From an uncultured Eubacteriales bacterium (GTDB lineage: Bacteria > Acidobacteriota > Aminicenantia > Aminicenantales > Aminicenantaceae), in the NCBI GenBank assembly GCA_964456985.1, contig CAYWDH010000010.1, forward strand, positions 850 through 64,849: a stretch of 64,000 bases of DNA, given 5' to 3'. The notes beneath the pieces are model-generated. The model made no database searches. It worked only from the letters and a program-made list of their open reading frames with translations, and was not told where the DNA came from. This document shows, piece after piece, positions 386 through 29,269 of this stretch. A program made the translations under genes and the position numbers. Position 1 is the first letter of the stretch. The number at the start of each line of letters is the position of its first letter.

Positions 386-560
386 TCTATTACGCAAAAT
401 GCGTTACGCATGATTGATATCTTTCTCAATATTAGACGCACAAAAAGAGCCCCCATTATCAAAATCACTCGCATTTCCTGTGAAAATAGGACAATTGTCT
501 ATTGACTAAAACCCCCGCACAGGGTATTCGTATGTGTATTCGTATAGTAAACGGAGATCA

Positions 561-1475
561 ATGATGAATGTCGTAGAGATCGAAAACGTGACAAAAACCT
601 TCGGCTCGGTCACAGCTGTGGATGAATTGTCCCTCAATGTCCCGAAAGGGTGCATTTACGGTTTTATCGGGCCCAATGGGTCAGGGAAAACCACCACCCT
701 GCGCATGATCATGAACATTTTCTATCCGGATTCAGGCACCATACGAACGTTCGGTGAGGAAATGAAAGGGACCAGCACTGACCGCATCGGCTATCTCCCG
801 GAAGAGAGGGGCATGTACAAAAAGATGAAAGTGCGCGACCTCCTCAAGTTTTACGGGGAGCTCAAAAGCGGGCACAGAGTGGACAAAGACGTGGACTACT
901 GGCTCGAGCGCCTGGAACTCAGCGATTGGAGCCAGAAAAAAATAGAGACCCTGAGCAAAGGCATGGGACAGAAAGTCCAGTTCATCTCCACCATTGTAGC
1001 CAGGCCCGAGCTTATCATCCTGGACGAGCCCTTTACGGGGCTGGATCCGGTCAATGTGGAAGTGATCAAAGACGCTGTCCTGGACCTCAGGTCCGATGGG
1101 TCCACAGTGATCTTCAGCACCCATGACATGAATGTCGCTGAGAAAATGTGCGATTTCATATTCATGATATTCAAGGGGCGGAAAGTCCTGGATGGGACTC
1201 TGGCATCGATCCAGCAAAAGTACGGAAGCGATACCCTCCGTATCCGGACAGAAGGCGGAAGATCCGCTCTGGACGGCATAGAAGGCATTGATAAGATCAC
1301 AGACTTCGGAAAACTCCAGGAGCTGCGTATTCATCCGGGATTCGATCATCAAGAGATCCTGAGCCAGATCATGTCCCGCACTCAGGTCTACAGCTTTGAA
1401 CTGGCCACGCCCACACTGTATGACATATTTCTGAGAATTGCCGGGCCCGAAGCCGAGGAGCACGCCGATGCGTAA
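561..1475 (+). CDS. ABC transporter ATP-binding protein (ABC-2/NatA-like)
   Basis: It has Walker A GPNGSGKTT, signature LSKGMGQK and Walker B LIILDEP. The start was moved to the MMNVVEIENV Met at 561, downstream of the ORF-track start. Confidence 0.9.
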   Translation: MMNVVEIENVTKTFGSVTAVDELSLNVPKGCIYGFIGPNGSGKTTTLRMIMNIFYPDSGTIRTFGEEMKGTSTDRIGYLPEERGMYKKMKVRDLLKFYGELKSGHRVDKDVDYWLERLELSDWSQKKIETLSKGMGQKVQFISTIVARPELIILDEPFTGLDPVNVEVIKDAVLDLRSDGSTVIFSTHDMNVAEKMCDFIFMIFKGRKVLDGTLASIQQKYGSDTLRIRTEGGRSALDGIEGIDKITDFGKLQELRIHPGFDHQEILSQIMSRTQVYSFELATPTLYDIFLRIAGPEAEEHADA

Positions 1476-2784
1476 AACACTGAGATTTATAAAACGGGAA
1501 TATCTGGCAGCAGTCAGAACAAAGGGATTCATAATCATGCTGGTCCTGATGCCGGTGCTGATGGGAGGAAGCGGTATTGCCATGTATCTCCTTCAGGGCC
1601 AGGTGGACACAAGGGATAAACGTGTGGTCATTGTAGACCGCGCCGGGATCGTAACGGACATGATTCTCAAGGAAGCCGAAAAACGCAATGCAGAAGCTGT
1701 TTTCGATAAAGAGACCGGGAAAAAGGTCAAGCCCGCTTATGTGTTCGAAACGGCGGAGCCCAATGTCTTGGATCCTCAGACCCAGAGGCTTGAGCTTTCA
1801 GAACGCATACGCAGAGGGGAGATCCACGCCTTTTTGGAGATCGGCCCCAATGTGCTTCATCCAAGGGGTAACGAGAGCTCATTCTGGATCAAATATCACG
1901 CAAAGAATGCGGCTATCGACAGCGTCCGCACCTGGCTGGACAACACGATCAATCCCTACCTCCGAACGATCCGCCTGTCAGAGGAAGGGATCGAAGGGCC
2001 CAGAGCCAACGAGATCATGACCTGGATCCGGGTGGAGCCCATGGGATTGGTATCTGTGGATGAAGCGACAGGCGCGATCAAGGAAGCCAGAAGAACGGGC
2101 GAACTGGAGACTATCCTTGTGCCGATCGTGCTTTTTTTCCTGATGTTCATGCTGGTAATGATGGGGGCCATGCCCCTTCTCCAGAGCACCATGGAGGAAA
2201 AAACACAGCGGATAGCCGAAGTCCTCCTGGGCAGTCTTCAGCCCCATCAGTTCATGGCGGGAAAGGTCATTGGAGGCTTGCTTGTATCTCTGACCGGAGC
2301 CCTGGTTTATGTCGCCGGAGGTGTCTTTTTCATGGGCCGGATGGGGTTGACTGATTTTATTCCCTTCCATGTGATCCCCTGGTTTTTTGCTTTCCTTATT
2401 CTGGAGATCGTCATGGTGGGTTCGATCCTGGCTGCAGTCGGTTCGGCCTGCAATGATCCCAAGGACGCCCAGAATATGACCTTCCCGGCCATGATTCCGG
2501 TCTTTTTGCCCATGTTCATTTTTATGCCTGTTCTGCAGGAACCGACCAGCGCTTTTGCCACCTGGCTGTCTCTTTTCCCCCTTTTCACACCTATGCTCAT
2601 GATCATCAGAACAGCCTCTCCTGTGGGTATCCCGGCGTGGCAGCCCTGGGTCGGACTGGCAGAGGTTCTGCTCTTTACTGTTTTTATCGTGTGGATCGGA
2701 GGGCGGATCTTTCGTGTCGGCATTCTTATGCAGGGAGGCCCCCCCAAGATCTCCAAAATGATCAAATGGGCTTTCCGCGGCTGA
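1468..2784 (+). CDS. ABC-2 type transporter permease (NatB-like)
   Basis: It has an N-terminal TM helix, a large extracytoplasmic loop and a C-terminal multi-TM block. The ATG at 1468 overlaps the ATPase stop by 8 nt. Confidence 0.85.
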   Translation: MRKTLRFIKREYLAAVRTKGFIIMLVLMPVLMGGSGIAMYLLQGQVDTRDKRVVIVDRAGIVTDMILKEAEKRNAEAVFDKETGKKVKPAYVFETAEPNVLDPQTQRLELSERIRRGEIHAFLEIGPNVLHPRGNESSFWIKYHAKNAAIDSVRTWLDNTINPYLRTIRLSEEGIEGPRANEIMTWIRVEPMGLVSVDEATGAIKEARRTGELETILVPIVLFFLMFMLVMMGAMPLLQSTMEEKTQRIAEVLLGSLQPHQFMAGKVIGGLLVSLTGALVYVAGGVFFMGRMGLTDFIPFHVIPWFFAFLILEIVMVGSILAAVGSACNDPKDAQNMTFPAMIPVFLPMFIFMPVLQEPTSAFATWLSLFPLFTPMLMIIRTASPVGIPAWQPWVGLAEVLLFTVFIVWIGGRIFRVGILMQGGPPKISKMIKWAFRG

Positions 2785-3907: not shown

Positions 3908-4837
3908 ATGCGTCTTTACGTGGGAGTCACAGACAATAACTGGTATGACTTCCTCTCCCGCCTCCCTGATTGTGATGAAGTGAACTTCTGGCAACCATCT
4001 CCTTCCAATCCATTTAAAGCCTTAAATCCAGGCGAACCTTTCCTCTTTAAGTTAAAAAGCCCCTATAACCATATTGTTGGAGGAGGTTTCTTCACATATT
4101 ACACCAAACTTCCTGTAAGCTTAGCTTGGGAAGCCTTTAAAGAAAAAAATGGGGCTTCCTCATTTATGGATATGAGATCCCTCATCTTATCAAAAAGAAA
4201 CCTATCTTCTGATACAAGAGAGGACTTCCAGATCGGATGTATCCTGCTAACACAACCTTTTTTCCTTGATAAAAATCTATGGTTTGTGCCCCCTGAATGG
4301 AGTAAAAGCATACAAACAGGAAAAGGCTACAGTCTGGATAAAGAAGCAGGCAAGATTATATGGGAGAGAATACAATTCCTCTCAGAACAAAAAGACTCTA
4401 AAGCCCTACAGCTTAGGGAAATATTGAATGAACAACAAAGGTATGGAAAAGACCAGATCATAAAACCGCGTTTAGGTCAAGGCACTTTCCGGGTCAAAGT
4501 CACAGATGCTTATCACCGCTCCTGTGCGGTTACAGGAGAGAGAGCGCTACCGGTGCTGGAAGCTGCCCACATAAAGCCCTTTTCTGAAAGCGGGCCTCAC
4601 ATGGTACAAAACGGCCTTCTCCTTCGATCCGATCTTCACAAACTCTTTGACAAAGGCTATATGACCTTAACGACTAAACTTGATGTAGAAGTGAGCCGGC
4701 GTATTAAAGAAGAATTCGATAATGGAGAGTATTACTACACCTTGCATGGAAAAAAGATGAGACATCCAGCTCACCTGGATGAGAGGCCAGAGAAGGAATT
4801 CATAACCTGGCATAATGAGAATAGGTTTAAGGGATAA
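3908..4837 (+). CDS. HNH endonuclease (HNH_2-type) with an N-terminal beta-rich reader-like domain; candidate type IV restriction enzyme
   Basis: The C-terminal CAVTGERALPVLEAAHIKPFSESGPHMVQNGLLLRSDLHKLFDKGYMT matches the HNH_2 pattern (AHI.P ... N.L.L....H..FD). The N-terminal ~150 aa (NFWQPS...PGEPFLFKLK) resembles PUA-like modules fused to such nucleases. Confidence 0.8.
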   Translation: MRLYVGVTDNNWYDFLSRLPDCDEVNFWQPSPSNPFKALNPGEPFLFKLKSPYNHIVGGGFFTYYTKLPVSLAWEAFKEKNGASSFMDMRSLILSKRNLSSDTREDFQIGCILLTQPFFLDKNLWFVPPEWSKSIQTGKGYSLDKEAGKIIWERIQFLSEQKDSKALQLREILNEQQRYGKDQIIKPRLGQGTFRVKVTDAYHRSCAVTGERALPVLEAAHIKPFSESGPHMVQNGLLLRSDLHKLFDKGYMTLTTKLDVEVSRRIKEEFDNGEYYYTLHGKKMRHPAHLDERPEKEFITWHNENRFKG

Positions 4838-4946
4838 TCGTTTATATAATTGACAGGAAATTAAAGATAAAAAATATCTCTTTATTGATAAGATATTAAT
4901 ATCATTTTTATTTTTAATTTATAAAATTTTTTTGGAAAATCACAAA

Positions 4947-5516
4947 ATGATGAAATTATATAGCTTTCTTTTTTTTGAAGGGAATAAAAATCTATTAAAG
5001 TATAGAAAAATAGGACTATTAGCATCCAGGAATGTTGTACCAGGAGTTTCTCAAATTCTAATCGAATTAGTAAATAGGTTGTCAAAATTAAACAATTGTG
5101 TTTTTATTAGTGGTTGGCATTCTCCTATTGAAAAAGAAATTCATGAAGATTTAATAAAAATAGGAAAGGCACATATTCATATTGGTGCAAAATCAATTAA
5201 TAAGATGTTTTGTCAATTAGATAAAGGAAAAACATTATTTATTTCTCATTGTGATTCGAAAGTTATCCGAATAACAAGAGAAAATGCCCTAAAAAGGAAT
5301 AAAATAATATGTAAAATTTCAGATTTATTATTAATTCCTTGGTTGGATACAAAAGGAAAAACACATAATATTGTTTCTAATTATTGTAAAATCATACCAA
5401 CTTTCATTTTGAATAAGGAATATAATTTAGATTTAATAAAACATGGTGCTTATTATTATAATTTTCCTAAAATAAAATCTCTATTGGAGAAAAATAATGC
5501 AGACTTTAACAATTGA
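4947..5516 (+). CDS. DprA/Smf-like (SLOG/Rossmann) protein
   Basis: IGLLASRN..., FISGWHSPIEKEIHEDLI and RENALKRNKIICKISDLLLIP align with the DprA blocks (VGsR, SGlAxGID..aH, FpxRNRIIaglsd). Its 3' end overlaps the methyltransferase start by 20 nt. Confidence 0.65.
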   Translation: MMKLYSFLFFEGNKNLLKYRKIGLLASRNVVPGVSQILIELVNRLSKLNNCVFISGWHSPIEKEIHEDLIKIGKAHIHIGAKSINKMFCQLDKGKTLFISHCDSKVIRITRENALKRNKIICKISDLLLIPWLDTKGKTHNIVSNYCKIIPTFILNKEYNLDLIKHGAYYYNFPKIKSLLEKNNADFNN

Positions 5517-8500
5517 GGAAATTGTAAGAATCCAATCATATATTGTCGCGGAGCAAATAAAAAAAGCAGCAAACTGGGCTGATTCCGAAGAGGATTTAAG
5601 GGTTGAAACTGAAAAGATACTCGAAGAATTTAAAAAGAAAGCTAAACTCAAAGAATTGAAAGGGCACCATGAGGTGACTATAGGAAAAGGGAGAGCAGAT
5701 TCTATATATAATTATATTGTCATAGAATACAAAAAACCGGGGAGATTATCTGATTCCAATAGCTCTTCTGGAAATAAAGAAGTTATAAATCAATTAAAGG
5801 ATCGTATGGATGTTTTAGAGAAAGAAGAAAATAGAAAGATCACAAAATTATTTGGCATTGGTCTTGATGGGAATTGGTTTGTCTTTGTTAGGTTTCGTCA
5901 TAATAATTGGGAAGTTAACAAGCCAGTACCTGTAAACAAACAAACAACAGAGAGATTTTTACGAGCATTATTAGCTCTTGCAGCAGCAGGCAAAGCTCTT
6001 CAGCCTCAATATCTTTCTGGAGACTTTGGTGCCGATTCACCCCTGTCAGGAAAAGGCATAGAAACTTTTTATAAAGCAATAATTAATACTGATAATCCAA
6101 AAGCAAAAGTCCTTTTTGAAGAATGGAAAATTTTGTTTAGTGAAGTAGGAGGATATGATATAAAATCACTTGATAACAAAATTCAAATATTAGCTGATTT
6201 TTATAATATAAAAGAAAAGCCCGAACCTTCTGCTTTGCTGTTCTCTGTACAAACCTATTATGCATTATTTATGAAACTTTTAGCTGCAGAAATAATGAAT
6301 TATTTTAATCCAATGTTTCCTTCGATTTTAAACCGTTTTCATCAAGCATCCACAAGTGAAAAACTAGTACGGGAACTGAAAGACTTGGAAAAAGGCGGTA
6401 TTTACAGGCAAATGAAGATAACAAATTTTTTAGAGGGGGACATGTTTTCATGGTATCTAGATGCATGGAATACTACAGATAAAGCTGGCAAAAAAATTGA
6501 GGTAGAAAGAGTCATAAGGGATATTATAAATAAAATGGATGAATATGATCCAGTTACTCTATCAGTTGAACCTGGGGAATCCAGGGATTTACTTAAAGAA
6601 CTCTATCAAGAGCTTTTCCCAAAAAGTGTGCGTCATGACCTTGGAGAATATTACACTCCAGATTGGCTTGCGCAATGGGTAATTGAGAAGGTAGGTATAA
6701 AGGGCAATCCAGATGAGCGAATTCTCGATCCAGCTTGTGGATCAGGAACTTTCTTAGTTCTAGCGATTCAAAAAATACGAAAATTCGCTGAAGAAAATAT
6801 GATCCCTGAAAGAGAACTTATACAAAAAATTAAAGAAAATGTTGTGGGCTTTGATTTAAATCCGCTTGCTGTTATTGCAGCACGATTGAATTATCTTATT
6901 GCCATTAGAGATTTAATTAAATATGGAGATGAGATAGAGATACCTATATATCTTTGCGATTCGGTTTTGACTCCTTCTGAATATGAAGAACTTTTTACAC
7001 CATCCGGTACTCCAGCAAAAAAAGGAGAAAAAGGATCAGTGAGAAAACTTAAAACTAGTGCAGAAACGTTTATAATTCCTTCAGAAATCGCTTCTTCCCG
7101 TAGATTTGTAGCAAGATATACAGAACAATTAGAATATTGTGTTCAACATGATTTTACACAAGAAGAATTTGTCCAGCGATTAAAAGAGGAAGATCTTCCT
7201 GTAGAAAGCAAAGAATTGCACGTAGATCTATTTAATATTTTAACTAAGTTAAATAAAGCTGATAAAAATGGAATATGGGCAAGAATCATTAAAAATGCCT
7301 TTGCTCCTCTTTTTATTAGTCCGGTTGATTATATAATTGGGAACCCTCCATGGGTTAATTGGCAAAATCTTCCTGAGGAATATAGGCAAGATAGCAAAGA
7401 ACTATGGTTTAAATATGGTCTGTTTCCTCATAAAGGAATGGATGCTATCCTTGGGAAAGGAAAAAAAGATATTTCGATGATTATGACTTATGTATCTATG
7501 GACAAATATCTAAAAAAACATGGAAAGCTTGGTTTCGTTATCACTCAATCTGTTTTTAAAACCGCAGGAGCTGGACAAGGATTTAGAGGATTTAAGATTG
7601 ATGATAAAACATCGATAGCGCCAATTTATTGTGATGATATGGTAAAAATAGAACCATTTGAAGCAGCAAATCGAACAGCAGTTATAATACTTCAGAGGGA
7701 TATAGAAGTTAATTATCCTATCCCATATACTTTATGGAAGAAGAAAAAAAGAGGGAAAATTGATTCTCATACAGAGTTACAGAATGTATTAAATAGTGTT
7801 GAACGAATCAATTTCGTTGGAAAACCGGTAGATCCTAAAGATAAGACATCTGCTTGGATGACAGGTTATAAACAAGCTCTTTATGCAGTAGATAAAATTA
7901 TAAGGAAATCAGACTACATTGCTCATGCGGGTATGTATACAGGAGGGGCTAATGCAGTTTATTGGGTGGAAAAATTAAAAGAATTAGAGGGAGGGAATGT
8001 ACTTGTTAGAAATATTACCGAAGGGGCAAAAAGAAAAGTAAGACAAGTAGAAGCAGTAATTGAAGAGGATGTCCTTTATCCCTTAGTTCGAGGAAGGGAT
8101 GTGAAAAGATGGAGAGCTTATCCATCAGCTTATATAATAATGGTACAGGATCCAATTAGACGACAGGGTATTGATGAATCGATCATGAAGCAGAAATATC
8201 CTCAAACATATGCATATCTTAAAAAGTATGAAGATGAATTAAGAGATAGAGCTGCATATAAAAGATATTTTAAAGAAACCGATCCATTTTATTCAATGTT
8301 TGATGCTGGAGAATACACATTTTCTCTATGGAAGGTAGTATGGCCATGGATTTCTACTAATTTAAAAGCAGCTGTTATTAGTAAGGATATCGAGGGAAAA
8401 ATTTTAGTACCGGAACATAATACATCTTTTGTGTCCTTTAATAATCCTGAAGAAGCGTTCTTTTTTTGTGCTTGTTATAATTCAGCACCTGCGAATTATA

Positions 8501-8772
8501 TTGCTAAATCTTCATGGTCAGGTGGGGGAGGGGGTATTGCTTCTCCTAAAATTGTTGACAGAATTTTTGTTCCCAAATTCAATAAGTCAAGTAAGTTGCA
8601 TCAAGAAATTTCATGTTTAGCAAAAAGAGTTAATGATCTTGTATTAGAAAATAAAACTGAAGAATTAACTAAAACCGAAAAGCAGCTATCAGAAAAGTTG
8701 GCCTCATTATGGAGTCTAAAAAAAGATGAACAAAGAGACATTCATGAATCTTTGGAGAAAATGGATTGTTAG
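5497..8772 (+). CDS. Large N6-adenine DNA methyltransferase with an N-terminal PD-(D/E)XK-like nuclease motif (type IIG/MmeI-like architecture)
   Basis: Motif I is LDPACGSGTFLV and motif IV is IGNPPWVNW. The N-terminus carries D68-X8-E77-X-K79 (GRADSIYNYIVIEYKKPG). A ~450-aa C-terminal region is a candidate target-recognition domain. Confidence 0.9.
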   Translation: MQTLTIEEIVRIQSYIVAEQIKKAANWADSEEDLRVETEKILEEFKKKAKLKELKGHHEVTIGKGRADSIYNYIVIEYKKPGRLSDSNSSSGNKEVINQLKDRMDVLEKEENRKITKLFGIGLDGNWFVFVRFRHNNWEVNKPVPVNKQTTERFLRALLALAAAGKALQPQYLSGDFGADSPLSGKGIETFYKAIINTDNPKAKVLFEEWKILFSEVGGYDIKSLDNKIQILADFYNIKEKPEPSALLFSVQTYYALFMKLLAAEIMNYFNPMFPSILNRFHQASTSEKLVRELKDLEKGGIYRQMKITNFLEGDMFSWYLDAWNTTDKAGKKIEVERVIRDIINKMDEYDPVTLSVEPGESRDLLKELYQELFPKSVRHDLGEYYTPDWLAQWVIEKVGIKGNPDERILDPACGSGTFLVLAIQKIRKFAEENMIPERELIQKIKENVVGFDLNPLAVIAARLNYLIAIRDLIKYGDEIEIPIYLCDSVLTPSEYEELFTPSGTPAKKGEKGSVRKLKTSAETFIIPSEIASSRRFVARYTEQLEYCVQHDFTQEEFVQRLKEEDLPVESKELHVDLFNILTKLNKADKNGIWARIIKNAFAPLFISPVDYIIGNPPWVNWQNLPEEYRQDSKELWFKYGLFPHKGMDAILGKGKKDISMIMTYVSMDKYLKKHGKLGFVITQSVFKTAGAGQGFRGFKIDDKTSIAPIYCDDMVKIEPFEAANRTAVIILQRDIEVNYPIPYTLWKKKKRGKIDSHTELQNVLNSVERINFVGKPVDPKDKTSAWMTGYKQALYAVDKIIRKSDYIAHAGMYTGGANAVYWVEKLKELEGGNVLVRNITEGAKRKVRQVEAVIEEDVLYPLVRGRDVKRWRAYPSAYIIMVQDPIRRQGIDESIMKQKYPQTYAYLKKYEDELRDRAAYKRYFKETDPFYSMFDAGEYTFSLWKVVWPWISTNLKAAVISKDIEGKILVPEHNTSFVSFNNPEEAFFFCACYNSAPANYIAKSSWSGGGGGIASPKIVDRIFVPKFNKSSKLHQEISCLAKRVNDLVLENKTEELTKTEKQLSEKLASLWSLKKDEQRDIHESLEKMDC

Positions 8773-8800
8773 TAAGTATAATACATTGGAGCCATTCTAA

Positions 8801-11506
8801 ATGCATAACATAGATTTTCAAAAATTAGATATGGTTGTATCTAAAAATCCGCTTCTTACTAATTATGGAAAAGGTCGAATATTAAAGATTAAGAATGGCA
8901 TGGCTAAGGTAGAGTACATTCCTCATGTTTTTAGCAGTCCACCATACTTTGCTCACACAAAACTATTAAAGCTGGAAGAAACAAAAAGAATTCCTTCACC
9001 AATTGAACTTTTAGAGGATCACCAAATTGAAGAGACGTGGAAATTTGATTTGCGTCAGATGGCAGCGAGATTTCTTACTGCAAATAAAGGAGGACAGCTC
9101 TCAAACACACGTACAGAATTACTGCCTCATCAGATTTTTACTGCTTATGAAGTGGTGAAAAGTCAAAGAAGAAGATTTTTACTAGCTGATGAAGTGGGTT
9201 TAGGTAAAACCATAGAGGCTGGAATTATATGGCAGGCACTTTTTCAAAGGGGAGTTGCCAGCCGGACTCTTATTATTTCTCCAGCTGGTTTAACGTTGCA
9301 GTGGCAGGAAGAAATGCAAGAGAAATTCGGGGCATTTTTTGAGATATTTAATCGCGATTTTTATACCATAAATCCCCGTATTTGGGATTTAAAAACGACG
9401 GCCATTGCTTCGATTGATACTTTGAAGCGTACAGAACACAAAAATAAATTATTAGAAAACCGAAAATGGGATTTAATTATTTTTGACGAAGCTCACAAAC
9501 TCAGTGCAAGAGAATATGGAACGAAGTTAGATAAGACGGAAAATTTCAAATTAGCTGAGGATCTCAAAAACTATACAAATGCTTTAATTTTAATAACAGC
9601 AACACCCCATCAGGGAGAAGACAATCATTCTCGGTTTATAAACATGGTAGAGTTATTAGATAAAAATATTGATTTTAGTGCTTTAGCTTATAAGGATTTG
9701 CCATTATTTCACACGGTAGCTGAATCAAATAGCACGCCATATTTTGAATATATACTTCGGACTCCAAAATCAGCAGTTACCGATGCTTCTGGCCATAAGG
9801 TTTTTAAAGGAAGGCAAACTCATAAATATGCTTTCAATATGTTTCCCGATGAAAAGATATTTTATCAGGCTGTAACAGATTATATTACAAGAGGATATTC
9901 ATACTTAGAAAGGATTGCAGATAAACAGAAACGTTTGGCTCTAGGATTTGTGCTTTCAACCTTTCAAAAGATTGCTGCAAGTAGCACAATAGCAATTAAG
10001 GATTCACTTAGAAGGCGGAAAATGTTTCTTGAAAACAAAAGAGTTATTATTCAAGAAGAAAGTCTGTTTGAAGATGATAGATTTATAGGAGAATATGAGG
10101 AATCACAAGTTGCATTCAAATATGATGAGCAATTCATTAAAAGCGAAATCAAAAAAATTGATTCCCTTTTAGATATGAACGTAGTTAATGATGTAAAGTC
10201 AGTTGAGATAATAAAGTTTATAAAGTCAATATTAAGGAAGATAAAAAACGAAAAAGATAAAAAGATTGTTATTTTCACTGAATATTTAGCTACCCAGAAT
10301 AATTTAATTAATATTTTAGAAAAAGAGTTCGGCAATGGATGTGTGACTTATATAAATGGAAGTCTTAATGTTGATAAAAGAAGACTAAATAGATATAAAT
10401 TCAGGGATGATAACAACATTCACTTTCTTGTATCCACTGAATCAGGTGGTGAAGGGATAAATCTTCAGTTTTCCCACATTTTGTTTAATTACGATTTACC
10501 TTGGAATCCTATGAGAATAGAACAAAGAATTGGACGTATATATAGATATGGCCAGGATAAAGTTGTGCAAATATATAATTTTAGAACCAAAGAAACAATA
10601 GAAGATAAGATCTATAAATATATAGAAGCGAAAATCGAACGATCAGCAAAAGCATTATCTAAAGTTACTGGGGAGGATGTTGAAGATATTGTCTCTACGA
10701 TGTATGGAGAGATGGAAAATGAAATTGATTATAATGAAATATACAAAAGATCTTTAGTTGAAGGAGACATTAAAGAATCTAAAGATGAGATTGACAGAGG
10801 TATTGCAAGAGCCAAGAGAGCTTATGAGTTAGCAAAAGAGAAACTATTCAAAGAAGCGTCCTCATATAATTTCGATAATTATGAAAAACATTTAAAGACC
10901 GAACTGTCTCTTCAGGATTTGGAGTCATTTGTAAAAAGGTATTTAAAAATTAGGCGAAAACAAGTATTTGAGTCGGATGGAGTATATTCTTTTATTACTC
11001 CAAATGAATTAGAGGATGATTCGATTGAAAAAAAATATAAAAAAGTAACTTTTAGCAGGAAAAAAGCTATTGATCATCCAGAATTGGAATTTTTTGCTAT
11101 AGGACATCCATTCATTGATAAAGTGATGTCCCTTTGTGGTTCTATAGAGTTTGGTGGATATGTAACCTCAAGATTATTGCATAATGAAAATTATAAAGGA
11201 GTAAAGGGTATTCAATTTAATTATATAGTGCGCAATAGAATACAGCGGCAGGAAGAGGAAGAATTTCTTTTTGATATGTATACCATATTTATAGATAAAG
11301 ATTATCGGATAAATGATGAGATCGCATATTTATGTCAGCGTAATTATTCTTTAAATGAAAACGACAGTCTTGAACATAAGATTGATATTGATGTTCAAAA
11401 AGCAGAAAATATCGCAAAAGAATATCTTCAACAAAAAATAAAAAAAATATGGGATTGGGAAGAGGATGTAGAATTATTAAATATCGCTTTAGTTTATATT
11501 GAGTGA
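8801..11506 (+). CDS. SNF2-family helicase/translocase
   Basis: The motifs are ADEVGLGKTIEAG (I), IIFDEAHKL (II), LITATPHQG (III), STESGGEGINLQ (V) and QRIGRIYRYGQ (VI). The C-terminal ~300 aa is uncharacterised. Confidence 0.9.
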   Translation: MHNIDFQKLDMVVSKNPLLTNYGKGRILKIKNGMAKVEYIPHVFSSPPYFAHTKLLKLEETKRIPSPIELLEDHQIEETWKFDLRQMAARFLTANKGGQLSNTRTELLPHQIFTAYEVVKSQRRRFLLADEVGLGKTIEAGIIWQALFQRGVASRTLIISPAGLTLQWQEEMQEKFGAFFEIFNRDFYTINPRIWDLKTTAIASIDTLKRTEHKNKLLENRKWDLIIFDEAHKLSAREYGTKLDKTENFKLAEDLKNYTNALILITATPHQGEDNHSRFINMVELLDKNIDFSALAYKDLPLFHTVAESNSTPYFEYILRTPKSAVTDASGHKVFKGRQTHKYAFNMFPDEKIFYQAVTDYITRGYSYLERIADKQKRLALGFVLSTFQKIAASSTIAIKDSLRRRKMFLENKRVIIQEESLFEDDRFIGEYEESQVAFKYDEQFIKSEIKKIDSLLDMNVVNDVKSVEIIKFIKSILRKIKNEKDKKIVIFTEYLATQNNLINILEKEFGNGCVTYINGSLNVDKRRLNRYKFRDDNNIHFLVSTESGGEGINLQFSHILFNYDLPWNPMRIEQRIGRIYRYGQDKVVQIYNFRTKETIEDKIYKYIEAKIERSAKALSKVTGEDVEDIVSTMYGEMENEIDYNEIYKRSLVEGDIKESKDEIDRGIARAKRAYELAKEKLFKEASSYNFDNYEKHLKTELSLQDLESFVKRYLKIRRKQVFESDGVYSFITPNELEDDSIEKKYKKVTFSRKKAIDHPELEFFAIGHPFIDKVMSLCGSIEFGGYVTSRLLHNENYKGVKGIQFNYIVRNRIQRQEEEEFLFDMYTIFIDKDYRINDEIAYLCQRNYSLNENDSLEHKIDIDVQKAENIAKEYLQQKIKKIWDWEEDVELLNIALVYIE

Positions 11507-11570
11507 TTATTTGTTTGATGATTACTTGTCTAGCCCATATGATATATTTTTGACTATTCTTTTATGAAAG

Positions 11571-12563
11571 GTGACCAAAATGAAAAAAAATATGTGGATG
11601 GTAAGAGCTGGAGAAGGGGGATATCTTTTCCAGGATTTCAAAGAGAACAATTTAGTCGCTATAGGTTGGGGAAAAATTGGCAATTTAAAAGAAATCAAAG
11701 GAGTTTCTGAGATAAAAAAGCGACTAAAAGAATCTTATACTGACCGAAAAGCAGGTTGGATTGTAATGAGTGCTAGTCAGGTAAACAAGTTCAGGTTTGA
11801 TTTCAAAAAGGAAGACTATGTCATTACGTATGATTCTCAGGAAAGGAAATATTGGATCGGGGAAATAACTGGAGATTATGAATACCACGAAAAAATAATA
11901 GAAAAATATCCTAATTTAAGAAAAGTAAGGTGGGAAAAAGAGATAGACAGAGACAAACTTTCTGTCTCTACAAAGAATACATTAGGAGCCATATCAACGA
12001 TTTTTTATATAGGGGATGATGCAAGGAAGGAAATTTTAGACTTTCTCAAGGGAAAAGAAATCACTGATGAGTCTGCTGAAGAAACAGAAGATTTATTAAA
12101 AGAGGATATGAAACAAAAGGCCCATGAGTTTATTAAGGATAAGGTTGCTAAACTCGATTGGTCTGATATGGAACGACTGGTGGCAGGGATTTTAAGGGCT
12201 ATGGGATATAAAACAAGAATATCACCTCAAGGTCCGGATAGAGGCAGGGATATTGAGGCATCCCCTGATGGGCTAGGACTTGTTGATCCCAGGATAATTG
12301 TAGAGGTAAAAGACAAATCCGGACAGATGGGAAGAAGCGAAATAACAAGTTTTACAGGTGGATTAAGGCCTGGACATAAGGGAATCTATGTGAGTACTGG
12401 TGGATTTTCGAGAGATGCAAAATATGAAGCTGAAAGAGCCAATATTCCCATTACATTGATTGATCTGGATGGCCTTATTAGTCTGATTGTCCAATATTAT
12501 GATTCTTTTGATTCTGAAACCAAAACTTTAATTCCTCTAACAAAAATATATTGGCCTGAGTAG
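11571..12563 (+). CDS. Mrr-like restriction endonuclease with an N-terminal reader-like domain
   Basis: The C-terminal Mrr_cat pattern is GPDRGRDIEA...IIVEVKDKSG...IYVSTGGFSRDA. The N-terminal MWMVRAGEGGYLFQDF...VAIGW...RKVRW domain is common in Mrr-type enzymes. Confidence 0.8.
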   Translation: MTKMKKNMWMVRAGEGGYLFQDFKENNLVAIGWGKIGNLKEIKGVSEIKKRLKESYTDRKAGWIVMSASQVNKFRFDFKKEDYVITYDSQERKYWIGEITGDYEYHEKIIEKYPNLRKVRWEKEIDRDKLSVSTKNTLGAISTIFYIGDDARKEILDFLKGKEITDESAEETEDLLKEDMKQKAHEFIKDKVAKLDWSDMERLVAGILRAMGYKTRISPQGPDRGRDIEASPDGLGLVDPRIIVEVKDKSGQMGRSEITSFTGGLRPGHKGIYVSTGGFSRDAKYEAERANIPITLIDLDGLISLIVQYYDSFDSETKTLIPLTKIYWPE

Positions 12564-12611
12564 TTCCCAAATTTTTTAGGGAATATATATTGTTGATTTT
12601 TTTAGGAAATT

Positions 12612-13520
12612 TTATGTACTAACCGAGATATGACCTGAATTTATCTTTATGTCCCCAGTAACACAGAATTTTCCAACTGGGCAATCTCCTTCTCGTGGGC
12701 ATATTAGGTCTTTTCTTTTTCTGCAGCCATATTTAGATAGATGCCAAAGCGGTTCGTCTAATTGTAATGTATAAGTAAGGTCTTCATCATTTAATTGATG
12801 AATAGCCTCTCTCCAAACTTCATTTATAAGAGAGGAGATTCTGTTATTTCTACTGCCATTGTATTCACCTATTAACGCCCCTGTTCTAAAGCTAGATCTG
12901 GCAACGTGTACATCAACTGGCAATGGTACTTTGTCCAGATTTTTCAGATTAATATTTAAATTGTCTTTAAGCATTCTTATCCATAAAGGATAGATTTTGT
13001 TTCCTGTAAAGCTTGGAAAATTTTTCTTAAAAGTATAATCAAATTTTTTACTGTAAATTATAGATGCATCAGAGCTCGCCTCTTTTACAATGTTCAGAGG
13101 ATCATCTTCATAGATTTTATTTAATGATTCTGCTACTTTAAACCAAATATTAGAATCTTTAGTGGGCCTTTGTGATAATTTATGCTTCTGCATAGCCTTT
13201 TTTACATCTTCAATATTATGCTTAACAACTTCTTTTGGGAAAAAGAGCCATTTCGTTGGTTCATCATTAAAAGTTATTCTCCCAGATTCCCATAATCTAT
13301 TAGCATTTCTCATGTAATCTATAGAAACAACCATTGTTATGAACATTAAGTATTCATATTTGGATGCTCCGGGTACTTCTGATCCCCATTTAATTGTATC
13401 TGGTTTTACATCTTCGGGCATATTGTTATGACCAAAAATTCCTTCTTTAGAATTAAATTTAGAATGAAGTATTTTTGCAACCTGCTTGGCCTTATTTATG
13501 TCTTTATTTAGATTAAACAT
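12612..13520 (-). CDS. HhH-GPD-like (endonuclease III-like) protein with a C-terminal Cys cluster; candidate DNA glycosylase
   Basis: LPVDVHVARSSFRTG parallels the EndoIII VDTHIFRV block. LDEPLWHLSKYGC and C-X6-C-X5-C (CPREGDCPVGKFC) parallel the Fe-S cluster loop. The call rests on motif-level similarity only. Confidence 0.55.
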   Translation of the reverse strand: MFNLNKDINKAKQVAKILHSKFNSKEGIFGHNNMPEDVKPDTIKWGSEVPGASKYEYLMFITMVVSIDYMRNANRLWESGRITFNDEPTKWLFFPKEVVKHNIEDVKKAMQKHKLSQRPTKDSNIWFKVAESLNKIYEDDPLNIVKEASSDASIIYSKKFDYTFKKNFPSFTGNKIYPLWIRMLKDNLNINLKNLDKVPLPVDVHVARSSFRTGALIGEYNGSRNNRISSLINEVWREAIHQLNDEDLTYTLQLDEPLWHLSKYGCRKRKDLICPREGDCPVGKFCVTGDIKINSGHISVST

Positions 13521-13995
13521 TTTTATTTATGTCAAGTATTGGGCTTTTGCTTGAATCATTTAATATATTTTTAGAAATTTCTCCCTTTTGTATTAATCTG
13601 ATCACTTCTGGGAGTAGCCCTATATCTCCTTGAAAAGAAAAACCTATAGAGACAAAGTTGATTTTTGCCTTTTTACAAGATTCTTGAATGCAATATAAAT
13701 AATTGCGATTGGCACCCCCTTTAAAGAAGACTACCCAATTATATCCTGAATTTTTTAATTTATCTGCGATAATAGGAACGAATTGTTTTGCTTTTTCCTT
13801 AGTCATGATTTCATTGTAGGGGGCGATAATCTTCTCTGCAGGTAAGAGTTCATGTTTTGCACTTAAAATATACATATCACAATCATTTTTTCTATTGTAG
13901 ACGGCTTTTATTCGTGCTGATTTATATAGTTTATAGGCTTGAGTGGGGGAGTTGTGTTTTTTGTTTCCGCAAGCAGTTACCAATGCTATTTTCAT
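13513..13995 (-). CDS. Small alpha/beta protein, DUF6884-like pattern
   Basis: LVTACGNKK...AYKLYKS...YILSAKHELLPAEKIIAPYNEIM fits my recollection of the DUF6884 signature (CSxxK, LY, ILSAKhGLl, PYd). Its stop overlaps the downstream HhH-GPD-like start by 8 nt. Confidence 0.5.
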   Translation of the reverse strand: MKIALVTACGNKKHNSPTQAYKLYKSARIKAVYNRKNDCDMYILSAKHELLPAEKIIAPYNEIMTKEKAKQFVPIIADKLKNSGYNWVVFFKGGANRNYLYCIQESCKKAKINFVSIGFSFQGDIGLLPEVIRLIQKGEISKNILNDSSKSPILDINKNV

Positions 13996-14132
13996 TTTAT
14001 ATGTTTTTATTAAGTATTTATTCCGTTTTGTATACTATGAATTAATTATCTCTTTTGAATGTTGCTGATATAATTTAAGGATTTTATTAATCTTTTTGAG
14101 ATATTTCCAAGTATAATAAATTTGACTTAATG

Positions 14133-15164
14133 TTACTCTCTTTTTTTGAAATGAGGTTCGGATTCAGAAGAACCTATAAAATAAAAATAATGATGCATTA
14201 CTCGAGCAAGTCTAGAAATAAACATAAGAGCAGAATAGACCCTATTACCCAACTCATATTCGTTGGTATCTTTTTTTACTATGTTTTCCCCAAATATCGT
14301 AGTTGCTTCTGTTTTATCTATAACAAAACCATGGTCTTTGTATGAATAGACAAGGTCTTTTGCAATTGTAGTTGGTTTTTGTTTTAAATTAGATGAATGT
14401 GCTTTTAGGAGGCGCTCTGCATATTGAACAGCTGATTCTGCTACACGCTCAAAATATCCTAGATGAATAGGCTTTAAGGACATATTCAAGTATTTAGCAA
14501 ACATATCTGAGGCATGAGGATAGTGTTTAACTAGATCAGCAATGTGCTCAATAGAAGCCTTAAGCCCTAGTGCTGGAAGATTATCGATTTGGGGATCAAT
14601 AGGACCAAGTTCACTGAGACTTCCCATGTGTATTTCATCTGCAGCACAGCAGATTAGTGTTGCACCAGACTTGGCCTGGCGAGGTACGACTACAATAAAT
14701 TTCCCACATGAATATTCACGACATAACTTACCAATCAGATATGCTGAGTCTATAAATCCACCGCTTGAGTAAAGCACAAGTAGGATTGGATTCCTTTCGG
14801 AGAAAGAGGTTGCTGCTGAGTAAATGTGGTCTGCATCACTTTTAACCATTCGTCCTTCATCATGGAGTATGAGGATGTTGTATTTATTTGCTATTGTGCT
14901 CTGATTGATCTGGTATTTTATATAGTCTTGAATAAGTTTATCGCGCTTCTTCGCAGAATCGGAAGGGGCATCGGGACTCAGTGATGTGAAAAGAGTATCC
15001 ACAAGTAGGTTAATATTATATTTTTTCTTATTTTTATCTTTACTAGTGGTTGCTGACTGTGGTGATGGTGTAGGTTCAACATTAGGAGTCCTTTTATTTT
15101 TGGGTTTTGGTTCAGCTGCTTTTTTTTGTTTGGTGCTTTTTTTCTTAGTTGCTTTACTAGGCAT
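14133..15164 (-). CDS. SDH-family ClpP-fold serine protease with a Lys/Pro-rich N-terminal tail
   Basis: PILLVLYSSGGFIDSAY...VVVPRQAKSGATLICCAADEIHMG..SELGPIDPQ matches the serine dehydrogenase proteinase (SDH_sah) pattern. The first ~45 aa are KKKSTKQKKAAEPKPKNKR... Confidence 0.8.
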   Translation of the reverse strand: MPSKATKKKSTKQKKAAEPKPKNKRTPNVEPTPSPQSATTSKDKNKKKYNINLLVDTLFTSLSPDAPSDSAKKRDKLIQDYIKYQINQSTIANKYNILILHDEGRMVKSDADHIYSAATSFSERNPILLVLYSSGGFIDSAYLIGKLCREYSCGKFIVVVPRQAKSGATLICCAADEIHMGSLSELGPIDPQIDNLPALGLKASIEHIADLVKHYPHASDMFAKYLNMSLKPIHLGYFERVAESAVQYAERLLKAHSSNLKQKPTTIAKDLVYSYKDHGFVIDKTEATTIFGENIVKKDTNEYELGNRVYSALMFISRLARVMHHYFYFIGSSESEPHFKKRE

Positions 15165-15491
15165 ATATTATCCTCTTAATTTTAGAAAAATCATGCAGAT
15201 TTTTATGGAATACCGTATTGTTTTTTCTTGTTATATAATTCTGAATATAAACATGAAATAATGTAATTAATATAATAAATTTTTTTATCATTATCCTTTT
15301 GCGTTTAATGCTTTTAACTGTAATATTGTCTTCAACATAAATATTAACAAAATAAACAACACTATTCAAGAAAAAAGTATATTAGATGAAGAATATCATT
15401 TGTATATATGTATTTTTTTATTAACAGGAAGCAAGTTTAAATAAGATTTCTCAATTGATGCTTTAAAAAACATATTAAATAAAATTATATA

Positions 15492-16409
15492 TTAACAATC
15501 TCTAAATTTGATTATTTTTATTATATCTCTACCGGTTTCGTCTTCAATATTTATATATATTTTTTTTACGGAATTTTCGCTATCTTTTGATATTGTAAAA
15601 AAACATGTATACAGTCCATCCTCAGTTAAAGGAATAACTGAATGTAATTTTCTTTTATTGTCTAATAAATTTATGAATGGCATCTCTCTATTTTCTTCTT
15701 TATAGATTTCATTCTCTCCTTTGTAAATTTTAAGACTTTCATTATTAACATTCCATTTTTTATTGAATATTTCAATTTTTATAGCTTTTGTTTTTTCTTC
15801 TTTTATTAAAAGTCTTATATAGAGAAAAAAATTGTTGTTTTCTTTTTTACAAGTTATCCAAACATTACTAAAGATATGTGGAAGAAAGTTATATACAATG
15901 AATATTGAAACAATACCTATACCTAAAACTACAGCAAGAAATAACAAATTTACAGCTCGTTCTCCCATTATTAATTTTGGAATATTAGAGAATATTAATA
16001 TAGAAGCCATTACACTAGTAAGGACAACAATTCCAAATGATGCGAGTAATGATCGAGGATTAGGTCTTGAAAGTGGAAGGTATTCTCTAATCCTCCTAAA
16101 AAATTCAAAAATAGATATTATCAAAAGTATAAATCCAAATATTCTAAGAAAATTAATAGATAGATCTTTTAGAAAATAAACAAAGTTGTTTAAGCAATTT
16201 AAGTTTAAAATTAATTCATTCATACTGAAAGTAACTACCCACATAATAGTTATAAACATTAATATAATTAGGAAATAAGAAAATATTTTTTCTATAAATG
16301 AAAGAGCAAATTTAATACCTAAATCTCTACCTTCATAAGCGCAAATAGAAATATATATAATTGCTATTACTCCAAAAATAACTAAAGAAATAGTAGTGAT
16401 AGAAATCAT
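15492..16409 (-). CDS. Multi-pass membrane protein with a C-terminal soluble domain
   Basis: It has about six hydrophobic segments followed by a ~110-aa soluble tail. Its start overlaps the stop of the upstream B12-rSAM gene (ATGA-type, 4 nt). Confidence 0.6.
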   Translation of the reverse strand: MISITTISLVIFGVIAIIYISICAYEGRDLGIKFALSFIEKIFSYFLIILMFITIMWVVTFSMNELILNLNCLNNFVYFLKDLSINFLRIFGFILLIISIFEFFRRIREYLPLSRPNPRSLLASFGIVVLTSVMASILIFSNIPKLIMGERAVNLLFLAVVLGIGIVSIFIVYNFLPHIFSNVWITCKKENNNFFLYIRLLIKEEKTKAIKIEIFNKKWNVNNESLKIYKGENEIYKEENREMPFINLLDNKRKLHSVIPLTEDGLYTCFFTISKDSENSVKKIYINIEDETGRDIIKIIKFRDC

Positions 16410-17809
16410 AACTTTATTTCCTTTCCTAAAGATGTTTCTAATTCGTATTCTAAAGTTGTTCTTATCTGTTTATTAGAATATTTTTTTTCAATTTCTAAAC
16501 ATAGAGTAACTAATTTCCTTCCTTTTTGCCCTCTATGAAAAGGGAAAAAATCACTTTTTTCATTTAACCAGTCATTTATATTGTATTTCTTCTCCTTTAA
16601 ACATTGTTTAAATAGAGCAGTATTAGGGTGAACATGCACAGGATTGCATGTAACTTCGTCTGGATTAATAATACTTAATAGGTTCAAAGTGTCATCTAAT
16701 TCATCTTCAGTTTCGCCTGGATATCCTAATATTATCCAAATACCAATATTTATCTTATTTTTTTTTATTATTTTACAAATATCAATAATTTCATCGTTAG
16801 TCATTCTAATATTTTTATTCATTGCATCTCTTATTTTCTCTGAACCAGATTCAAGTCCAAAATATATTTTTTTACCACCTGCTTCTGAATAATTCTTAAT
16901 TAAGTTTTCATCGATACAATCAAATCTTGTGTGCATATAAAGACTTAAACTAGAATTTAATTTTTTTATTTCTTTAAATATATCGATTGCCCTTTGTTTG
17001 TTATAAGTAAGTGTATCATCTTGGAAACGTAAATTTTTAATATGATACTTATTTAACAGGAATTTAATTTCTTCTGAAACTCTTTTTGGTTCTTGAAAAC
17101 GATATTTTTCCCAAAGTTGAGGAGAATAACAAAAATTACAGCGATAAGGGCATCCTCTTGTTGTTATCAAAGAGATAGTATTTATATTGCCAAAATTAAA
17201 AATTTCTTGATATTGAGGATATTCAGTAAAAGGTATAATGTCAGTATTATTTAACTCATTATTATTTAAATTACGTCTTGGATTTGTCTTTATTATTTCC
17301 CCTCTTTTGTTTCTGAGGACTATGCCTTCTATTTGTTCTAGTGATTGATTAGTATCTATTGAATTAATTATTTGTAATAAAGTTATTTCTCCTTCCCCAA
17401 TAACGAGTATATCAAATATATTTGAATATCTTTCTAAAAACATTTCTTGCATGATCGAAATATGTGGTCCTCCTCCAATGATAAGAATTTTAGAGTCAAA
17501 ATTTTTAATCTCTTTTGCTATTCTTATTCCATAATTACGTGTGGGGGAAGTTAAACTTATTCCTACACAATCGATATTATTTTCCTTTTCTAAAATTAGC
17601 CTTGTACTTTTAATTAAATTAATTTTTTCAGAGAACTTATTTTTTAGATATGCAAAAAATGAGTCAAGAACCAAAACCTCATGGCCTATATTTCTCAGAA
17701 TAGAAGCAAGTAAATTTATTCCAAAGACTGGATTGGAAGAATTAATTTTAGAAATTTGCCTCTTTCCTATATTCCTATTAAAGTCTGCTTCAATTAATAA
17801 TATTTTCAT
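16406..17809 (-). CDS. B12-binding-domain radical SAM protein
   Basis: It has an N-terminal Rossmann-like B12 domain (MKILLIEADF..., ILIIGGGPH) and a radical-SAM cluster, TTRGCPYRCNFCYSP. The start was set at the Met preceded by an AGGAGG RBS, not the ORF-track start at 17890. Confidence 0.85.
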   Translation of the reverse strand: MKILLIEADFNRNIGKRQISKINSSNPVFGINLLASILRNIGHEVLVLDSFFAYLKNKFSEKINLIKSTRLILEKENNIDCVGISLTSPTRNYGIRIAKEIKNFDSKILIIGGGPHISIMQEMFLERYSNIFDILVIGEGEITLLQIINSIDTNQSLEQIEGIVLRNKRGEIIKTNPRRNLNNNELNNTDIIPFTEYPQYQEIFNFGNINTISLITTRGCPYRCNFCYSPQLWEKYRFQEPKRVSEEIKFLLNKYHIKNLRFQDDTLTYNKQRAIDIFKEIKKLNSSLSLYMHTRFDCIDENLIKNYSEAGGKKIYFGLESGSEKIRDAMNKNIRMTNDEIIDICKIIKKNKINIGIWIILGYPGETEDELDDTLNLLSIINPDEVTCNPVHVHPNTALFKQCLKEKKYNINDWLNEKSDFFPFHRGQKGRKLVTLCLEIEKKYSNKQIRTTLEYELETSLGKEIKL

Positions 17810-17816
17810 ATATTTT

Positions 17817-18683: not shown

Positions 18684-18689
18684 AAAATA

Positions 18690-20206: not shown

Positions 20207-20220
20207 TGTTTTTTCTTGAA

Positions 20221-24747: not shown

Positions 24748-24767
24748 TTTTCCCTTATGCTCTTCTT

Positions 24768-29068: not shown

Positions 29069-29269
29069 TTGTAATAATGTTTTAAGATTGCATTCTCTTA
29101 AAATAGCTTATAGGCATAGTGTTAGTCACATGACTATAAATTAATCCCCCCCTCCATGATAATTAACGGATTGGCCACACACACACAAATATTTCCTATT
29201 CCTGGCATCTTTTCATAAATTGCTTTATAATTTTTCCAAATTGTGGACAGGGTTGAACCTAAACGGCTT

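Follow-up and report, generated by a model that had tools for sequence, protein, structure and literature searches.

A cluster of three genes, encoding a small DprA-fold protein, a nuclease–methyltransferase fusion and a RapA-like SWI2/SNF2 ATPase, lies at 4947..11506 in a 64,000-nucleotide stretch of contig CAYWDH010000010.1 (assembly GCA_964456985.1, from an uncultured bacterium of the Aminicenantaceae). The whole stretch is called the window here, and coordinates are window positions unless another locus is named. We think it likely that these genes, termed g1 (mini-DprA), g2 (nuclease–methylase) and g3 (RapA-like SNF2), constitute a helicase-coupled restriction–modification (RM) module. 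This module looks like an undescribed variant of the helicase-plus-methylase immunity of DISARM, BREX type 3, Hma/BR and ARMADA. The evidence lies in the domain content of the proteins, their intact catalytic motifs, the DprA fold of g1, and the conservation and co-divergence of the three genes. A preliminary description of this DNA had joined a fourth gene, g4 (Mrr-type nuclease), to the same module; we found that co-conservation holds for g1–g2–g3 and fails for g4.

The four co-directional open reading frames (ORFs) of that description are present, all on the + strand, and so is its AT-rich island: G+C content is 24% in g1, 34% in g2, 32% in g3 and 37% in g4, compared with 52% in the flanking ABC transporter genes at 534..2784. 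The 20-nt overlap that it gave for g1 and g2 stood, and its gaps of 29 and 65 nt were corrected to 28 and 64 nt, the latter becoming 73 nt if g4 starts at its ATG. A 189-aa protein identical to g1 is carried in the public record.

We scanned 170 fetched loci with hidden Markov models (HMMs) of g1 and g4 and with single-sequence phmmer searches using g2 and g3. Co-occurrence across genomes was confirmed for g1–g2–g3, whose order is shared by L001/L005, L003 and L085 (g2 identity to the window 70%, 71% and 65%, respectively); in L085 the flanks are EPSP synthase and tRNA synthetase genes. At greater distance, L087 (g2 identity 52%) has g1–g2, a 6-kb cassette and g3, and L088 (48%) has g1, an FRG-domain gene and g2–g3. 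A short contig, L095, holds g1–g2, with a g1 of 54% identity. Wherever a close g1 homologue had enough flanking DNA, it lay directly upstream of a g2 orthologue, which was followed by a g3 orthologue. The g1 and g2 genes overlap by 20, 14 or 14 nt or lie 1 nt apart, and g2/g3 spacing is 1–79 nt. Pairwise identities co-vary over five loci (g1 versus g2, r=0.98; g2 versus g3, r=0.87). Judged by gene order and divergence, g1–g2–g3 is a conserved, co-inherited operon-like unit in unrelated flanks.

The pairing of g2 with g3 extends further than that with g1. Among 18 comparable g2 loci (approximately 40% identity or more, with downstream sequence present), about 10 (the window, L001, L003, L085, L087, L088, L089, L006, L016 and L099) have a g3-like SNF2 gene after g2, and the other eight (L007, L008, L014, L018, L091, L092, L101 and L102) lack one. 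A g1 gene was found in six of the approximately 10 helicase-linked loci and in none of the eight helicase-less ones; g2–g3 occurs without it in L089, L006, L016 and L099. On this distribution, g2–g3 is a conserved pair and g1 an accessory fixed in one branch. The g2 proteins linked to g1 form one clade, marked by an insertion of 8 residues and a deletion of 4 residues not seen in other g2 proteins. Multi-gene modification-based systems have been reported to embed other cassettes (bioRxiv 10.1101/2024.01.29.577857); the retention of both g2 and g3 around the 6-kb cassette of L087 matches this behaviour, suggesting that the two are coupled.

Two of these loci carry further genes of their own. 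Between g2 and g3, the L087 cassette (L087 positions 11237-17149) carries genes for an AAA_15 ATPase, for an unknown protein of 686 aa and for a SLFN_AlbA_2/HATPase_c_4 protein. In L088, a 274-aa FRG-domain protein (7190-8014) overlaps the start of g2, in the place of g1, and a longer DprA-like gene (287 aa) lies approximately 600 nt upstream of the FRG gene.

Domain content of the three proteins

The g1 protein consists of a DprA/SLOG Rossmann domain on its own and lacks both the SAM and the C-terminal domains found in canonical DprA. It scored 32.1 bits against Pfam DNA_processg_A (cutoff 29.6) and 28.4 bits against the DprA equivalog TIGR00732 (cutoff 191). We excluded a canonical DprA/Smf transformation protein, given the Rossmann core only and an equivalog score far under the cutoff. 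Among defence profiles, g1 matched PADLOC PsyrA (E 3.5e-10, over profile positions 119-293 of 398 only) and ShosA (E 0.008). An AlphaFold model of g1, built from a five-sequence alignment, had a pLDDT of 81 and a pTM of 0.81. Foldseek matched this model to the Rossmann domains of DprA from H. pylori and S. pneumoniae (template modelling (TM) scores 0.71–0.75; 4ljl, E 9e-10, TM 0.71; 3uqz, TM 0.74) and to the crystal structure of ShosA (8zva, E 1.7e-8). Weaker matches were MoCo-carrier and LOG proteins, which we take to belong to the same superfamily (SLOG) as DprA. Structure prediction thus bore out the DprA/SLOG fold proposed for g1 in the preliminary description. Its further claim that such a fold is part of no known defence system did not survive, as PsyrA/RqlI and ShosA are precedents and g1 matches the PsyrA profile.

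The g1 protein is basic (isoelectric point (pI) 9.7), as are its orthologues (pI 9.2–9.8 in four of five). Its close homologues are rare: a word-indexed search returned 5 proteins, a metagenome scan 2 short contigs and a plasmid search no relatives; PHROGs gave no match, and a degenerate DNA pattern for GGFHSPME matched 2 viral contigs. Searching 1.84 billion cluster representatives with a g1 profile recovered 646 relatives at E<=1e-3, of which 132 reached E<=1e-10; they are mostly stand-alone proteins of 160–250 aa that we term mini-DprAs.

The single g2 polypeptide carries a PD-(D/E)XK nuclease and a gamma-class N6-adenine methyltransferase, with a specificity region at its C terminus. It matched the PADLOC profile REase_MTase_IIG (PDLC03630) with 1064.6 bits over positions 13-1098 of 1100, and Pfam N6_Mtase, Eco57I and MmeI_Mtase. 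Both the gamma-class motifs and the N-terminal D-X8-E-X-K noted in the preliminary description are present and conserved: across 14 diverse members of the family, D68, E77 and E31 are invariant, K79 is kept in at least 90%, and DPACGSGTFL and NPPW are conserved in the gamma order. At least 7230 homologues exist. One relative, L091, lies between metabolic genes of a 5.8-Mb genome, and plasmid relatives (approximately 30% identity, for example L098) have an upstream helix-turn-helix (HTH) gene as their only companion. Because these relatives stand alone or with an HTH gene only, the family looks like a self-sufficient Type IIG-like RM enzyme, one branch of which would have become coupled to a motor. 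We found no solved structure for a close g2 relative and identified no characterised member of the family.

For g3, Pfam reported SNF2-rel_dom, Helicase_C and, weakly, RapA_C in the C-terminal region, and helicase motifs I, II, III and VI are intact (Table 1). The best solved relative is RapA (179 bits). PADLOC scores were 350 bits for BrxHI/II, 324 for HmaA and 276 for DrmD, and the DpdE profile was also matched. The protein fell below the NCBIfam equivalog cutoffs for all named helicases by a wide margin, the score for DrmD (NF038317) being 308.5 bits against a cutoff of 610. By these scores g3 is homologous to DrmD, BrxHI/II and HmaA but is not a DrmD equivalog. Pfam and PADLOC scans detected neither a PRTase nor a nuclease domain in g3. 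A DarB-like PHROG was matched weakly, and viral contigs yielded one close match, on the same contig as L099. A g3-like SNF2 helicase of 34% identity is encoded on the Nitrosococcus halophilus plasmid pNHAL01 (L178). Just upstream of it are genes for a 524-aa protein without a family match and for part (78 aa) of a circularly permuted YpsA SLOG protein, the whole stretch spanning 5415-10361, so that a further SLOG-fold gene adjoins a g3-type helicase.

Table 1 Positions of the four genes and of their motifs in the window
Feature	Position	Strand	Remarks
g1, mini-DprA	4947..5516	+	189 aa from ATG; TTG at 4932 likewise open
g1 signature motif GWHSPIEKE	5112-5138	+	
g1 signature motif ALKRNK	5286-5303	+	
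g1 signature motif PWLDTKGKT	5337-5363	+	
g2, nuclease–methyltransferase fusion	5497..8772	+	1091 aa
g2 nuclease motif	5689-5733	+	G-R-A-D68-X8-E77-Y-K79
g2 motif I, DPACGSGTFL	6727-6756	+	residues 411-420
g2 motif IV, NPPW	7342-7353	+	residues 616-619
g3, RapA-like SWI2/SNF2 ATPase	8801..11506	+	901 aa
g3 motif I, GLGKT	9197-9211	+	intact
g3 motif II, DEAH	9485-9496	+	intact
g3 motif III, TATP	9596-9607	+	intact
g3 motif VI, QRIGRIYRYGQ	10523-10555	+	intact
g4, Mrr-type endonuclease	11571..12563 or 11580..12563	+	from GTG, or from ATG (327 aa, public record)
g4 catalytic motif	12231-12260 and 12300-12314	+	D220, D224, K244 invariant

Mini-DprAs also occur beside Type IIG-like enzymes outside this family. 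In L179, the order is a PLD–SNF2 gene, a Type IIG fusion (PDLC03628, 958 bits), IetAS and a distant mini-DprA (E 1e-18 against the g1 profile). In L182, a mini-DprA gene overlaps by 4 nt the end of a gene for an Eco57I/MmeI-type methylase, and no SNF2 gene was detected near it. In L180, a mini-DprA gene lies among unknown genes, beside a UvrD and PD-(D/E)XK pair and TIR proteins. The partnership of mini-DprAs with Type IIG-like enzymes appears, from these gene neighbourhoods, to be a new and recurrent element. Its recurrence, although based on few cases, spans three gene orders and different enzyme families, which suggests a real functional link rather than an accident of a single lineage. A comparable enzyme–motor pair, built on a different Type IIG family, is found on Halalkalicoccus jeotgali plasmid 2 (L177, 3872-10958), where a 1383-aa MmeI-like Type IIG gene overlaps a gene for a 980-aa RapA-like SNF2 protein and no other system genes were seen nearby; g3-like helicases match many haloarchaeal plasmids, including those of Halobacterium salinarum.

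Two further arrangements were observed at these and related loci. A complete IetA–IetS pair occupies 5689-9004 of L179, between the Type IIG gene and the mini-DprA gene. On the E. coli IncF plasmid NZ_OX030731.1 (L183, 3202-13281), a Type I RM operon harbours, between hsdM–hsdS and hsdR, a PsyrTA/RqlHI-like pair made up of a gene for a RecQ-family helicase and a DprA gene (462 aa).

The Mrr-type neighbour and the surrounding island

The g4 protein has an N-terminal DUF8426 domain, a predicted YTH/PUA-like reader, followed by Mrr_cat (84 bits), and it matched the PADLOC candidate PDC-S02 (PDLC04819) with 314 bits over positions 1-330 of 334. Its AlphaFold model (pLDDT 84) has two domains; the top Foldseek matches were MspJI and AspBHI, and those of the N-terminal half were YTH domains, which read m6A (YTHDF2). 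Like MspJI, AspBHI and PDC-S02, g4 places a base reader before a PD-(D/E)XK nuclease in a stand-alone gene, and it differs from MspJI and AspBHI in that the N-terminal domain is DUF8426 rather than SRA. Homologues with DUF8426 and Mrr_cat number at least 4443, in bacteria and archaea, and the best 119 beyond its own record, archaeal ones among them, are 55–82% identical. We rejected a four-gene module, as neither tblastn nor HMM searches turned up a g4-like gene in any of the five other full g1–g2–g3 loci. Given this absence, and because g4 belongs to a large, widely transferred family that is a single-gene candidate in PADLOC, it is most likely, as far as models and profiles indicate, an independent Type IV (modification-dependent) enzyme and a neighbour only. 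Its family history, as read from these comparisons, is quite unlike that of g1–g3.

Mrr genes were seen near other g2-family genes as well. In L092/L093 (11285-12301), a g4 homologue (DUF8426 and Mrr_cat; full-length identity 28%) overlaps the stop of a helicase-less g2 gene, and an AAA_15 ATPase gene lies just upstream of the g2-family gene in L092. In L006, the Mrr gene that follows g3 encodes Mrr_N, not DUF8426, at the N terminus. We read the Mrr genes of L006 and L092 as independent Type IV acquisitions. An Mrr gene near g2 is a familiar pairing of modification-dependent with modification-blocked restriction, not a fixed module component.

Other genes of defence type surround the module. 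On the + strand, 109 nt upstream of g1, a 309-aa HNH_2 endonuclease is encoded at 3908-4837 (PADLOC 'HNH' PDLC04132, 72 bits; 42% G+C). We considered and rejected it as a fifth component, as it is absent from all related g1–g2–g3 loci; it is probably a separate defence gene. On the − strand at 12612-13995, the gene for a 160-aa DUF6884 protein (PADLOC PDC-M57A, E 1e-12) overlaps that for a 302-aa protein without a family match, and the pair may be a two-gene candidate defence system. The block at 14133-21183 (− strand) has the lowest G+C content of the window (23–30% from 15 kb to 21 kb). It encodes a ClpP-like SDH serine protease and two radical SAM proteins, one of them a B12-binding enzyme (PADLOC PDC-M51A) and the other with weak pVip (viperin-like) matches; an ABC transporter is also encoded there, together with its NMT1-like binding protein. 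Beyond it are a 938-aa UvrD helicase–PD-(D/E)XK nuclease fusion beside an RCK/TrkA-domain protein (21931-25865, − strand) and a 708-aa GmrSD_N–SLFN_AlbA_2 fusion with a YgjP-like metallopeptidase (26942-29992, + strand). The defence-type genes of these last two blocks suggest that the island reaches approximately 30 kb. No tRNA genes were found in the window.

Proposed mechanism and competing explanations

In the mechanism that we propose, g2 would recognize its sites, methylate host adenines (m6A) and cut unmodified DNA with its own PD-(D/E)XK domain. The g3 protein would be an ATP-driven double-stranded-DNA translocase that may carry the complex away from or between sites, or strip bound proteins; cleavage or methylation would thus be tied to long-range tracking, comparable to that of Type I, ISP and III enzymes. 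As a basic, fast-evolving regulator or sensor produced in step with g2, g1 could bind single-stranded DNA or a nucleotide ligand, the helicase, or both, and so gate or restrain the nuclease–motor pair. This gating is suggested by analogy with the action of PsyrA/RqlI on a RecQ-like helicase and of ShosA on a toxin, and we are much less confident of the specific role of g1. The g4 enzyme would act separately, covering phages that escape by DNA modification.

Several points weigh against a three-gene module. The Pfam score of g1 barely exceeds its threshold. The comparison covers only approximately 10 loci, mostly metagenome bins and some perhaps of shared ancestry, and the identity correlations rest on 10 non-independent pairs. 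A promoter and terminator scan of the locus did not outperform shuffled sequence, which lends nothing to co-transcription. Many g2-family members are solitary (L091) or have an HTH controller only (L098), suggesting that g2 needs no helicase and that g3 could act independently. Finally, the activities of g1–g2–g3, their division of labour and the role of g1 are inferred from sequence and models.

If g2 is self-sufficient, the locus could hold two interleaved systems, with g1 and g3 forming a PsyrTA-like toxin–antitoxin pair that brackets an embedded Type IIG enzyme. The match of g1 to PsyrA fits this, as do the binding and restraint of a helicase by PsyrA/RqlI (PMC4670107), the PsyrTA-like RecQ–DprA pair inside the RM operon of L183, the solitary g2 relatives, and the fact that g1 was never met without g3 among the sampled g2-family loci. 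We nevertheless consider it unlikely: g2–g3 occurs without g1 at four loci whereas g1–g3 without g2 was never seen, the overlap partner of g1 is g2 rather than g3, and g3, with no PRTase and no detected nuclease domain, has no obvious toxic activity alone. Furthermore, the mini-DprA of L182 is translationally coupled to a Type IIG-like methylase, with no SNF2 gene detected nearby. A chance pile-up of four unrelated single-gene defence genes in an AT-rich island is very improbable, although the window is a dense defence island (HNH, PDC-M57A, radical SAM, UvrD–PD-(D/E)XK and GmrSD–SLFN genes), g2 relatives are often solitary and g4 is indeed only a neighbour. The order and spacing of g1–g2–g3 recur with entirely different flanks, housekeeping genes included, the three genes co-diverge, and RapA-like SNF2 genes, which are rare, follow g2 in approximately 10 of 18 loci; for g1–g3, chance adjacency is largely refuted.

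The likeness of the g2–g3 pair to larger systems raises the prospect that class 1 DISARM, type 3 BREX, Hma/BR or ARMADA has here been reduced to a remnant or a minimal form. An SNF2 helicase accompanies an N6-adenine methylase in all of these systems, DrmD, BrxHII and HmaA are homologues of g3, and those helicases are RapA-like in architecture (PMC12839542). This origin seems improbable to us given that DrmA, DrmB, DrmC, PglZ, BrxC, DUF499 and YprA are absent within approximately 10 kb at every locus, that the L085 module abuts housekeeping genes on both sides, and that the equivalog scores of g3 are far under their cutoffs. The conserved PD-(D/E)XK nuclease of g2 also sets it apart from PglX/DrmMI-type methylases as we know them. 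Methylase–SWI2/SNF2 dyads are common in the polyvalent anti-restriction proteins of phages and plasmids (PMC5512222), and a DarB-like counter-defence or establishment module of a mobile element, which would methylate incoming DNA while the DprA-like protein coats the single strand, would agree with the weak match of g3 to a DarB-like PHROG and with the protection of incoming single-stranded DNA by DprA. Of the explanations considered, we give this one the least credence: g2 retains the conserved nuclease residues, g1 has neither a PHROG nor a plasmid match, and no conjugation, integrase or phage structural genes lie beside the module here or in L085, L003 and L089.

Beyond the three-gene module itself, we raise a wider idea only tentatively and regard it as rather doubtful: mini-DprAs might be general, unrecognized regulators that sense single-stranded DNA or a nucleotide and gate Type IIG-like enzymes and helicases, with the triad representing a distinct system type. 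If so, the triad would have arisen more than once (window-type loci, L179 and L182), RM immunity would be linked to the DprA–helicase axis of PsyrTA and ShosTA, and the enzyme may switch from methylation to motor-driven cleavage upon meeting replication or entry intermediates of an invader.

Comparison with known defence systems

None of the profile libraries PADLOC-DB 2.0, NCBIfam 20.0, Pfam and PHROGs defines the g1–g2–g3 triad, and we found no description of a DprA-like, Type IIG and SNF2 system in the searchable literature, which is incomplete. The preliminary assertion that the locus fits no described type therefore holds for the triad in PADLOC-DB 2.0, NCBIfam 20.0 and Pfam, and does not hold for g4 (PDC-S02) or g2 (Type IIG) taken singly. 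Taken alone, g2 resembles Type IIG enzymes of the Eco57I, BpuSI and MmeI families in joining a nuclease, a gamma-class N6-adenine methylase and a target recognition domain (TRD) in a single chain. It differs in that this branch is fixed beside a RapA-like SNF2 ATPase and often a mini-DprA; to our knowledge, classical Type IIG enzymes need no motor.

The g3–g2 combination, a RapA-like SWI2/SNF2 protein with a large adenine methylase, recurs as DrmD with DrmMI in class 1 DISARM and BrxHII with PglXI in BREX type 3, and HmaA with HmaB in Hma/BR and ArmA with ArmB in ARMADA II show the same SWI2/SNF2–adenine methylase pairing. The comparison with DrmD and DrmMI made in the preliminary description was a fair one, as g3 is homologous to DrmD (308 bits against the cutoff of 610), and the absence of DrmA, DrmB (DUF1998) and a PLD nuclease that it reported was upheld in scans of window ORFs and at related loci. 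Specifically, no DrmA, DrmB or DrmC was detected when the four genes and most of the larger neighbouring ORFs at 534-38306 were scanned against Pfam and PADLOC, and these proteins, PglZ, BrxC/DUF499 and a YprA-type helicase are absent here and within approximately 10 kb at related loci. What distinguishes g1–g2–g3 from DISARM, BREX, Hma and ARMADA is a methylase that bears its own active-looking nuclease and a DprA-fold protein found in none of those systems; we know of no PglX/DrmMI-type methylase with an active nuclease domain. The BrxHII and Hma/BR helicases have been described as RapA-like, with a Tudor domain, a Swi2/Snf2 core, an inactive REase and an alpha/beta domain, and BREX type 3 and Hma are defined by PglZ and BrxC, or by a DUF499 AAA+ ATPase, beside the methylase and SNF2 protein (PMC12839542, 2026). 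ARMADA II likewise pairs a DrmD-like SNF2 protein with a methylase (bioRxiv 10.1101/2025.09.22.677730).

Helicase-plus-methylase systems of this kind (DISARM, BREX, Hma/BR and ARMADA) are widespread, and the role of their SNF2 motor is unclear. The triad would be the smallest such version found, with one nuclease–methylase chain, one RapA-like motor and one DprA-fold protein. Close relatives of g2 lack a motor, and this enzyme family, occurring both with and without the helicase, is a natural setting in which to ask what a motor contributes.

With the module, the DprA fold would also have a part in immunity past the two known toxin–antitoxin pairs. In PsyrTA (RqlHI) and ShosTA, as with g1, a DprA-fold protein is the partner in a defence or toxin–antitoxin pair. 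RqlI/PsyrA is DprA-like and binds and restrains the RecQ-like helicase RqlH/PsyrT (PMC4670107), and ShosA is a DprA-fold, single-stranded-DNA-binding, unstable antitoxin (PMC11961720). By contrast, g1 is a 189-aa Rossmann core without SAM and HTH domains, compared with 308–400 aa for PsyrA and ShosA. It is accompanied by an RM fusion and an SNF2 ATPase, rather than by the PRTase-containing toxin of PsyrTA and ShosTA, and Pfam and PADLOC scans detected no PRTase domain in g2, g3 or their neighbours.

Type ISP enzymes (LlaGI and LlaBIII) unite an Mrr nuclease, a superfamily 2 (SF2) motor, a methylase and a TRD in a single polypeptide. With DarB, they resemble g2 and g3 together in their activity set, which comprises nuclease (PD-(D/E)XK or Mrr), SF2 motor, gamma-class methylase and TRD. 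In g2–g3 this set is divided between two proteins; it is the methylase, not the motor, that bears the nuclease, and the motor is of the RapA/SNF2 type. Coupling to translocation has been proposed for the DarB methylase–SNF2 dyad (PMC5512222). The Type ISP and DarB activity set may thus serve as a mechanistic template for translocation-coupled cleavage or methylation by g2 and g3.

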